DNA of 64,000 nt. Source: Dehalococcoidia bacterium (GTDB lineage Bacteria > Chloroflexota > Dehalococcoidia > SHYD01). The notes under the pieces were generated by a model. It saw nothing but the letters and a program-made list of their open reading frames with translations, made no database searches and was not told where the DNA came from. The position numbers and the translations under genes are program-made. This document shows positions 37,931 through 39,947 of the stretch, piece after piece; the first letter of the stretch is position 1; the number at the start of each line of letters is the position of its first letter. The stretch lies in contig OZ253478.1 of assembly GCA_965261835.1 (NCBI GenBank), positions 2,206,914 to 2,270,913 on the forward strand, read 5' to 3'.

Positions 37931-38905
37931 CTAGTCTTGCTGAAACGTCCCGCTCTTGCCACCCGCTTTGTGCACCACCCGCACGTCACCAATCCGCATG
38001 CTGCGATCTACCGCCTTGCACATGTCGTAGATGGTGAGGGCGGCAGTAGACACCGCGGTCAGCGCCTCCATCTCCACGCCGGTCTTGCCAGTGGTACGCA
38101 CGGTGGCGGTGACCTCCACGCAGGAGCGGGCAATATCCACCACAAAGTCTACGTCCACCCCAGAGATCGGCAATGGATGGCACATGGGGATCAGGTCGCT
38201 GGTCTTCTTGGCGGCCATAATGCCCGCCACCTGGGCCACGGTAAACACGTCGCCCTTGGCAATGCCGCCGGTCTGAATCAGCCGCAACGTCTCGGCCTGC
38301 ATAGACACCGCACCCTTGGCCGTGGCTTCCCGGTTTGTGTCTGGCTTTGCCCCCACGTCTACCATGCGGGCATTCCCCCCCTCGTCCAAGTGGGATAGGT
38401 GGGCCGACGCCGCCACACGCTCAGACGAGGGCGAAACTGACGGGGAATCCCCCGTCGTCGGTTGCGCCGGCTCGCCCAATACACCGGAGCGCTCGCCCCA
38501 CTCGGGGTCCGCCGTAGCGGCGACGGCCAACCGGTCGGCCTCTTCGTTCAACGGGTGACCGGCATGGCCTTTCACCCACTCCCAGGAGACCTTGCGTTGC
38601 TGGATCAGATCGTCCAATTGTTGCCATAGGTCGAGGTTGACCTTGCGCTGCCAGCGCTTGTTGTAGGTGTTCACCAAGTACTGGCTGTCGCTGTAGACCA
38701 CTACGCTGCATTGCGGCGGGGTCTGCTGCAACCCTTTTATGGCGGCCAGCAGCTCCATGCGGTTGTTGGTGGTGTGGTCCTGCCGTCCCGCCAGCCAACG
38801 GGCGGCGCCGTCACGCACAGTGACCACGCCCCAGCCGCCAGGGCCAGGGTTGCCGCTGCACGCGCCGTCGGTATAGAGGTCGATGGTGTCGATTGCGTCT
38901 GCTAT
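37931..38905 (-). CDS. moaC: Fusion protein: RNase HI (N-terminal) - linker - cyclic pyranopterin monophosphate synthase MoaC (C-terminal); start codon unresolved
   Basis: RNase HI residues are all present: DLYTDGACSGNPGPGGWG, TNNRMELLAAI, YSDSQYLV, WEWVKGHAGHPLNEEADRLA. The MoaC part reads LSHLDEGGNARMVDVGAKPDT.REA.A.G......T...I....I.KGDV...A...GI.AAK.T..LIPMCHPL. The first canonical start (GTG 38827) lies downstream of the catalytic DG motif. The in-frame N-terminus reaches back to 38905, abutting the moaA stop. Confidence 0.8.
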   Translation of the reverse strand: MADAIDTIDLYTDGACSGNPGPGGWGVVTVRDGAARWLAGRQDHTTNNRMELLAAIKGLQQTPPQCSVVVYSDSQYLVNTYNKRWQRKVNLDLWQQLDDLIQQRKVSWEWVKGHAGHPLNEEADRLAVAATADPEWGERSGVLGEPAQPTTGDSPSVSPSSERVAASAHLSHLDEGGNARMVDVGAKPDTNREATAKGAVSMQAETLRLIQTGGIAKGDVFTVAQVAGIMAAKKTSDLIPMCHPLPISGVDVDFVVDIARSCVEVTATVRTTGKTGVEMEALTAVSTAALTIYDMCKAVDRSMRIGDVRVVHKAGGKSGTFQQD

Positions 38906-38906
38906 G

Positions 38907-39947
38907 TCAGCCCCCGATGAAGGACATCTCGACCTTGGGCAGAACGGCTGTCTCCTCGGTCCGCAACTCGGAGTAACGGTCTTCTCGTACCCGCCAGACG
39001 CCCCGCAGATAGCGTTCTACCTCGGCGTCTGGGGCGCCGGCGCGGAGTAAGGCCCGCAGATCGTGGCCGCTGTTGGCGAATAGGCAGGTATACAGCTTGC
39101 CGTCGGCGGAGAGACGGGCCCGGGTGCAGGCTCCGCAGAAAGGCTGGGTCACCGAGGCGATAACGCCGATCTCGCCGCTGCCGTCATGGTAGCGGTAACG
39201 GCGGGCCACCTCGCCACGGTAGTTCTCAGGGAGCGGATCCAGCGGCAGCGCGGCGCCTATTGTCTGCACGATCTCATCGGCAGAGACAACATCGTCCATC
39301 CGCCAGCCGTTGGTGGTCCCCACGTCCATGTACTCGATGTAGCGGAGAATCTTACCCGTGCCCTTGAAATGGCGCGCCATGGGGAGGATGTCCGCATCGT
39401 TCACGCCGCGCTTAACCACCATATTGACCTTCACCGGTCGCAGCCCCGCCTCATCGGCAGCCTGGATGCCGTCCAGCACCCCCTGAACCGGGAAGTCCAC
39501 GTCATTCATCGCCTTAAAGACTTCGTCCCGCAGCGCGTCCAGGCTGACCGTAACCCGCCGCAGCCCAGCATCTTTGAGCGCCCGCGCCTTCTGCGGCAGC
39601 AGCGCCCCGTTGGTGGTAAGGGTCAGGTCTTTGAGGCCGGGAACAGCGGACAGCATGCCGATGAGCTGCTCAATATCCCGGCGCACCAGCGGCTCGCCAC
39701 CGGTGACGCGCACCTTCTCCACGCCCAAGCCGACCGCAATGGTGGTCAGGCGGGTGATCTCCTCGAAACTGAGGACGTCACTGTGGGGGAGGAAGTGGAA
39801 GTCGCGCCCAAAGACCTCCTTGGGCATGCAATAGACGCACCGGAAATTGCAGCGGTCCGTCACCGAGATGCGAAGGTCACGCAGCGGCCGGTTCATGGCA
39901 TCCCTGACGGGTGACTGGTCTTCGGGTGAGGTGGGAAAGCGAGTCAT
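38907..39947 (-). CDS. moaA: GTP 3',8-cyclase (radical SAM, molybdenum cofactor biosynthesis protein A)
   Basis: [18 protein letters not shown] (CX3CX2C), TGGEPL, the LTTNG motif, and the C-terminal cluster [21 protein letters not shown]. Start chosen at ATG 39947 ([10 protein letters not shown]). Confidence 0.9.

Follow-up and report, generated by a model that had tools for sequence, protein, structure and literature searches.

Natural ATG, GTG and ATA alleles at the start codon of an RNase HI-MoaC fusion gene in an uncultured Dehalococcoidia species

A 64,000-nucleotide (nt) stretch from a Dehalococcoidia bacterium (contig OZ253478.1 of assembly GCA_965261835.1, positions 2,206,914 to 2,270,913; hereafter the window) carries moaA and, directly downstream, a reading frame that joins an RNase HI domain to MoaC, an enzyme of molybdenum cofactor (Moco) synthesis (Table 1). 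This second gene begins with ATA, a codon that is ATG or GTG in other strains of the species, and the full-length protein is probably still made from it, at reduced yield. The moaA gene runs from ATG at 39947 to TGA at 38909-38907, where the context is ATC GGG GGC TGA and the encoded C-terminus ...SFIGG; its match to TIGR02666 scores 384.9 bits (cut-off 284). One spacer base, C 38906, separates this stop from ATA 38905, after which the +1 frame reads ATA GCA GAC GCA ATC GAC ACC ATC GAC CTC TAT ACC GAC GGC and continues, 324 codons counted from ATA, to TAG at 37933-37931. Upstream the frame is open as far as 39017, into the end of moaA, and it contains no ATG, GTG or TTG until GTG 38827, which is codon 27 and lies past the catalytic Asp13. 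A GGGGG run occupies positions -10 to -6, 5 nt short of the start codon, a functional spacing for a Shine-Dalgarno (SD) sequence. The original prediction had described most of this arrangement from the letters of the DNA, and its account of the open frame, the late GTG and the GGG GGC TGA C context with RNase H in the +1 frame agrees with ours; its suggestion that the G-run could act as an SD holds for position, and the function would follow from that placement.

Table 1. Coordinates of the moaA/RNase HI-MoaC locus within the window
Feature	Position	Strand	Remarks
moaA (GTP 3',8-cyclase), 346 amino acids (aa)	38907..39947	minus	TIGR02666, Radical_SAM + Mob_synth_C
GGGGG run in the last two Gly codons of MoaA (GGG GGC)	38911..38915	minus	Shine-Dalgarno-like, putative function
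ATA at the start-codon position of the RNase HI-MoaC gene	38903..38905	minus	ATG, GTG and ATA alleles in conspecific assemblies
RNase HI domain, residues 2-140	38486..38902	minus	D13 (38869-38867), E51, D73 and D124 catalytic
GTG, codon 27, first canonical start in the frame	38825..38827	minus	after strand 1 and Asp13
Ser/Pro/Thr-rich linker, residues 141-168, predicted disordered	38402..38485	minus	predicted local distance difference test (pLDDT), alignment
MoaC domain (cyclic pyranopterin monophosphate synthase), residues 169-324, with TAG 37933-37931	37931..38401	minus	TIGR00581, PDB matches

The protein read from this frame comprises an RNase HI-type domain, for which cleavage of RNA/DNA hybrids is predicted from sequence and structural model, followed by MoaC. 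Specifically, the Pfam RNase_H model (PF00075) is matched over positions 5-139 of 141 with 124.3 bits against a cut-off of 25.8, and residues 7-135 align with residues 4-145 of E. coli RNase HI (E 5e-33). The NCBIfam equivalog for ribonuclease HI (NF001236) is matched over positions 3-143 of 151 at 142.5 bits and misses its cut-off of 160; the protein is divergent and fused, and hence would not be named RNase HI automatically. All four catalytic carboxylates (D10, E48, D70 and D134 in E. coli numbering) are present; in alignments of 25 and 35 fusion homologues D13, E51 and D73 never vary and D124 has a conservation of at least 90%. The C-terminal half matches the whole of Pfam MoaC (PF01967, 199.6 bits, model 1-136 of 136), TIGR00581 (216 bits, cut-off 141.5) and NF006870 (236 bits, cut-off 162), and solved MoaC structures match it at E 1e-46 to 1e-50, with PDB 4fdf and 1ekr at 1e-48 to 1e-50. 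An AlphaFold model (mean pLDDT 87.9, predicted template-modelling score 0.48) contains two well-folded domains with a disordered linker between them (pLDDT <50 at residues 148-170), and its RNase HI part is a five-strand sheet with helices, mostly at pLDDT >90. Pfam, the alignments and the model thus agree with the earlier description of a complete RNase HI, a linker and a full MoaC in a single frame. Furthermore, strand 1 spans residues 7-16 of the model and strand 2 residues 21-31, so that initiation at codon 27 would remove strand 1 together with Asp13, and half of strand 2; the original prediction had supposed as much for the aspartate.

The combination of RNase HI with MoaC is a widespread architecture in the Chloroflexota and is not peculiar to the window. 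In a search of a collection of 5.8 billion proteins, at least 120 protein clusters, at 43-96% identity, hold both PF00075 and PF01967; where source names are given they read 'MAG: cyclic pyranopterin monophosphate synthase MoaC', from Chloroflexi, Dehalococcoidia or SAR202 cluster. L009 and L010 are likewise fusions among the matches listed in a scan of genome contigs with the fusion alignment, which seeded on MoaC motifs. The fusion homologues in our alignments all have their initial Met 2 to about 20 residues ahead of the YTDG motif, and the length of the linker is hypervariable among them (alignment columns about 155-240). In every relative inspected (L001-L008, L009, L010, L116 and L117) moaA lies directly upstream. 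The idea that the fusion might be confined to this locus, with separate rnhA and moaC genes in the orthologues, is therefore contradicted by how common it is. The architecture appears to be undescribed in the literature: we found no paper on it, and NCBIfam, which models MoaC/MoaB, MoaC/MOSC and MoaC/MobA fusions, has no entry for RNase H/MoaC. The original prediction's sense of novelty thus survives for the description of the protein and fails for the protein itself, hundreds of copies of which stand in databases labelled simply 'MoaC'. This has a practical side, in that the cellular RNase HI of Chloroflexota, Dehalococcoidia or SAR202 may hide inside a gene annotated for Moco. The architecture also varies in its RNase H part. 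In a distant fusion at L010:1998-2951, whose GTG start lies 3 nt past the moaA stop, the RNase H domain is degenerate, with DGAYNPLLGQGGWG and with HKEAH replacing NEEAD, and some members of the architecture have probably lost RNase H activity. Two further relatives, P0018 (450 aa) and P0060 (446 aa), have a tandem arrangement of RNase H, a second divergent RNase H-like domain and then MoaC.

It is informative to examine the start of the gene across the species. Twelve other long assemblies, which differ from the window by 0.7-5% across 3.8 kb, bring the number of conspecific loci to 13 (the window with L001, L002, L004-L008 and L111-L115). The codon at 38905-38903 is ATG in five of these (L001, L002, L111, L114 and L115), GTG in two (L112 and L113) and ATA in six (the window and L004-L008), and the 30 nt preceding it (...ATG TCC TTC ATC GGG GGC TGA C) are identical in 12 of the 13, L115 having one substitution outside the G-run. 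Because conspecifics with essentially identical flanks carry ATG or GTG at this very codon, ATA 38905 is the gene's own start codon with a single G-to-A change in its third base, at 38903. Near-cognate initiation at ATA or ATC had been proposed at the outset; of the three kinds of explanation put forward then, initiation at ATA 38905 fits best, the codon sitting exactly where the orthologues have their canonical start, and initiation there is predicted from this correspondence. The open reading frame (ORF) is full length in all 13 loci, with no stop or frameshift in any of the six that have ATA, and moaA begins with ATG in all 13 and is intact in every ATA strain. In a neighbour-joining tree of the 3.8-kb locus the ATA strains, which differ from one another by 0.5-5%, are interleaved with ATG and GTG strains and do not form one clade, which speaks for an ATA allele that has long existed, recombines or has arisen repeatedly, and against a recent lesion.

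These alleles bear on the way the gene has been annotated. The 90%-identity cluster that holds the public gene call for the window has both 324-aa and 298-aa members, the call for the window, on a 2.76-Mb contig, being one of the latter. The six public 298-aa calls begin at GTG 38827 because gene callers consider no start other than ATG, GTG or TTG. Callers limited in this way cut the protein to 298 aa and remove the catalytic Asp in six or more public assemblies, which would wrongly suggest a dead RNase H; the correct gene model is likely the 324-aa protein from 38905. N-terminally truncated public calls in other species (P0021, P0032 and P0015) were checked as possible further non-canonical starts and rejected, as all prove ordinary: at L003:2920 a GTG one base after the moaA stop had been missed, at L116:1351 an ATG had been overlooked by the gene caller, and at L117:1262 the truncation comes from a run of N in the scaffold. 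The RNase H part is thus under-annotated more widely.

An unusual base at a start codon invites the suspicion of error, and a sequencing error had been raised as a possibility from the beginning; faulty assembly, or a miscall of long reads linked to methylation at CATG, would have the same effect. Several of the assemblies are, judged from contig names, low-coverage (9-19x) long-read metagenome contigs, which would leave room for such an error. We compared Logan per-run contigs against the window. Four runs from the source sample (X1-X4) match 38700-39100, a stretch that includes the junction, without difference at a word depth of 11-30. The same ATA occurs in X5, X6, X7, X10, X11, X12 and X13, which represent six other samples and four further studies, so that in 11 runs (X1-X7 and X10-X13; 7 samples, 5 studies) it is the sole allele detected, at word depths of 5-30 in k-mer contigs. 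In three more runs (X14, X15 and X17) ATA and ATG stand side by side within the same 40-nt context, the T>C change at 38903 that marks the ATG allele taking about 69%, 69% and 46% of the word depth, respectively, and X18 and X19 have only ATG. The presence of both bases in one run within an identical context rejects an artefact that depends on context. ATA is, moreover, linked to a synonymous CCT at codon 20 in every ATA assembly. With at least 11 runs and six assemblies carrying it, the base is real, and we leave the artefact next to no probability. A scan of JGI metagenome contigs with the pattern GGGGGCTGACATNGCAGACGC returned 22 loci, none of them the RNase HI-MoaC locus, and was uninformative about the species; nearly all of the matches look by eye like the starts of proteobacterial cytochrome oxidase subunit III genes, and one (L102) is an ORF of 16 codons. 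The 20-mer GGGGGCTGAC ATG GCAGACGC also begins many unrelated JGI genes (L089-L110), a match by chance.

The layout of the junction had also suggested recoding of the kind used by prfB, in which ribosomes would shift to the +1 frame at or near the moaA stop (GGG GGC TGA C) and make a MoaA-RNase H-MoaC polyprotein. The RNase H frame is indeed +1 to moaA and open across the junction, the G5 run would let tRNA-Gly re-pair one base forward, and the stop codon directly follows the G-run codons. However, conspecifics with the identical context carry ATG or GTG, and the relatives all possess their own ATG or GTG start, in a frame that is +1 (L003), 0 (L009, L010 and L116) or -1 (L117) to moaA, with gaps between the two genes of 1-39 nt among distant fusions. 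This variation in frame rules out a conserved +1 recoding; neither the frame relation nor a shift site is conserved in the orthologues. Likewise, a P-site GGC before UGA re-pairs poorly on GCU, which does not make a slippery codon, and folding of the local RNA gave no significant structure at the junction for any of the three alleles (z-scores -0.3 to +0.3). It is also worth considering that catalysis by MoaA depends on a free C-terminal GG, and that the human MOCS1AB fusion is without MoaA activity (PMC9026282; bioRxiv 10.1101/429183); a polyprotein would bury this GG and so inactivate MoaA. A programmed shift is in our judgement extremely improbable.

We favour, as probable and from the comparison of sequences, a weak near-cognate start at the mutated codon. 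In this mechanism moaA and the RNase HI-linker-MoaC gene would form a tightly packed operon pair in which a stop, one base and a start follow one another, the downstream gene normally beginning at an ATG one base past the moaA stop and the GGGGG of the MoaA Gly-Gly codons serving as its SD. In the window strain and many co-existing conspecific strains ATA stands in place of this ATG, with GTG in others, and the initiator tRNA would pair with ATA near-cognately to give the full-length protein at lowered yield. Initiation would be assisted by the strong and well-spaced SD that is predicted here, and by ribosomes that finish moaA one base upstream and pass on through termination-reinitiation coupling. 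Metatranscriptome contigs from three runs span the junction in an ATG-type strain, consistent with a single mRNA for both genes, although carry-over of DNA into these runs is possible. At L117:1244-1253 the equivalent MoaA GG codons contain GGAGGG where the window has GGGGG (38910-38915); the codons for the essential Gly-Gly of MoaA thus double as the predicted SD of the next gene. A product started at ATA should yield the N-terminal tryptic peptide (M)ADAIDTIDLYTDGACSGNPGPGGWGVVTVR. Work on other bacteria gives an idea of the yield that might be expected: AUA starts reach 1-2% of AUG in one set of E. coli reporters (bioRxiv 10.1101/063800), and native AUA starts of S. aureus with extended SDs (infC, ccpN and citZ) reach about 10%, ccpN up to 30% of AUG in rich medium, the AUA of citZ being specific to a lineage (PMC13009471). 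In Listeria, mutants of rsbW from ATG to ATA or ATT arise and 39 genes have clade-linked flexibility of the start codon (PMC13068326), and the GTG start of E. coli lacI is another natural example of such flexibility (PMC11445065).

What selection has done to the frame speaks to the fate of the protein in ATA strains, with the reservation that the statistics rest on small counts and related sequences. In MoaC the ratio of non-synonymous to synonymous polymorphism (pN/pS) is 0.12 among ATA strains and 0.08 among ATG/GTG strains, and this strong constraint indicates that the reading frame is translated in the former. Over the whole species codons 2-26, which are read only if initiation takes place upstream of GTG-27, have five synonymous variants and no non-synonymous ones. 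The RNase H domain (38486-38827) is rich in amino-acid polymorphism and the fused MoaC (37934-38401) tightly constrained in all allele classes, a pattern that points to an RNase H surface that evolves fast across the species as a whole. The 13 positions of RNase H at which amino acids vary within the ATA group nonetheless do not overlap at all with the 49 family-conserved positions (chance about 0.004); with the ORF intact as well, decay of the RNase H module, another of the early suggestions, is unlikely. Several observations pull the other way from a working near-cognate start. Within the ATA group codons 2-26 show zero variation, so that constraint after the mutation is not measurable there; pN/pS of RNase H codons 27-140 rises somewhat, from 0.40 in ATG/GTG strains to 0.65 in ATA strains, again on small counts; the diversity of the ATA group could be imported from ATG strains by recombination, which would weaken the tests of selection; and near-cognate codons give as little as 0.02-3% of AUG in another set of E. 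coli reporters (bioRxiv 10.1101/063800).

The same numbers have to be set against two other outcomes of the mutation. Ribosomes in ATA strains may instead start at GTG 38827 or another internal codon and make a crippled RNase H with a working MoaC, in which case the allele would be a natural knock-out of RNase H activity only. This is the first canonical start and the one used in the six public calls, the contrast between purifying selection on MoaC and the higher ratio in RNase H is what it would produce, and the degenerate domain of L010 is a sign that loss does happen. On the other hand, the nearest G-rich stretch, GGGG, ends 1 nt from this GTG, too close for an SD, and GGCGG farther up is a poor match; the same GTG stands in all ATG and GTG strains and hence is no adaptation; the RNase H ratio is elevated in those strains also; the family-conserved residues of RNase H are unchanged in every ATA strain; and the modelled fold suggests that a fragment cut into its second strand would probably misfold ahead of MoaC. 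We regard an internal start as unlikely. The more drastic outcome, that ATA is effectively a null of the whole gene in strains that have no de novo Moco synthesis or use another moaC or rnhA elsewhere, would be compatible with the lowest E. coli AUA yield cited (0.02%); no second rnhA or moaC is present within the window, a search that covered only 64 kb of the genome. Against a null, six ATA haplotypes up to several percent apart all keep the 324-codon ORF, MoaC remains constrained inside the ATA group, moaA is intact upstream, and the occurrence of ATA as sole allele in so many samples is unexpected for a deleterious allele. We consider it improbable.

If initiation at ATA is weak and productive, as we favour, the series of ATG, GTG and ATA could be a natural dial for the dosage of RNase HI-MoaC relative to MoaA, or tolerated drift in it. 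A bolder form of this idea, in which the three alleles are kept as a dosage polymorphism, ATA is read mainly by reinitiation and the fusion conserved across Chloroflexota means that RNase HI and the MoaC hexamer are truly connected in function and not just neighbours by chance of gene order, strikes us as decidedly doubtful. In either case ATG, GTG and ATA occupy one site in identical surroundings here, a natural series in which the effect of start-codon strength and translational coupling on enzyme stoichiometry could be tested.

The surroundings of the gene pair can be described briefly. A gene for a Ham1/RdgB-like nucleotide pyrophosphatase adjoins moaA upstream (40066-40692, minus strand) and is found upstream of moaA in close relatives too; its presence at L009:169-804, in a Dehalococcoidia relative at about 51% identity, indicates that the order Ham1-moaA-rnhA::moaC is conserved. 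Farther upstream lies a class V-type FBP aldolase/phosphatase gene (PF01950). Downstream is a YmdB-like metallophosphoesterase gene (36881-37675, minus strand), with equivalents in L004, L005 and L115, that is called at 225, 257, 264 (from TTG, in the window) or 299 aa across assemblies, its start being ambiguous or variable. The sole Rfam match in the window is a T-box leader (RF00230) at 2254-2495 on the minus strand, at 96.6 bits against a gathering score of 93; the scan found no Moco riboswitch or other Rfam RNA near the moaA operon. No tRNA genes occur in the 64 kb, and a scan of the window for promoters and terminators was uninformative.

It remains to place the locus among known systems. 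As a protein, RNase HI-MoaC resembles the known MoaC fusions (MoaC/MoaB, NF002947; MoaC/MOSC, NF011069; MoaC/MobA, NF011070; eukaryotic MOCS1AB) and the known RNase HI fusions (mycobacterial RNase H/acid phosphatase, NF005567; dsRHbd-RNase HI, PMC1950709) in coupling a complete catalytic domain to a second enzyme through a flexible linker; it differs from both in that its partners come from unrelated pathways, the removal of RNA/DNA hybrids and the synthesis of Moco. The junction is like that of prfB (RF2; CUU UGA C) in layout only, with an SD-like G-run, a sense codon, UGA, C and a downstream frame in +1; unlike prfB, it has no slippery re-pairing and no conserved frame relation, its orthologues start independently, and a shift would inactivate MoaA. 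It also resembles coupled operon pairs that work by termination-reinitiation, with which it shares the TGA-C-ATN arrangement, a predicted SD inside the last codons of the preceding gene and, in a related strain, metatranscriptome contigs that span the junction, although as a family trait the likeness fails, since the gaps of distant relatives reach 39 nt. The nearest parallels to the start itself are the non-canonical starts of S. aureus and Listeria: in these, as here, a near-cognate codon has arisen by a change of one base in natural lineages, a strong SD is adjacent and a lower yield is expected, and the AUA of citZ, like the ATA of the window's species, is lineage-specific. The present case differs from them in that ATG, GTG and ATA co-circulate in one uncultured species, even within single samples, and in that the start lies one base past an upstream stop, where reinitiation may contribute. 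Natural variation of start codons that includes an AUA start is thus known, and the window adds a further example, within a fusion that is widespread.

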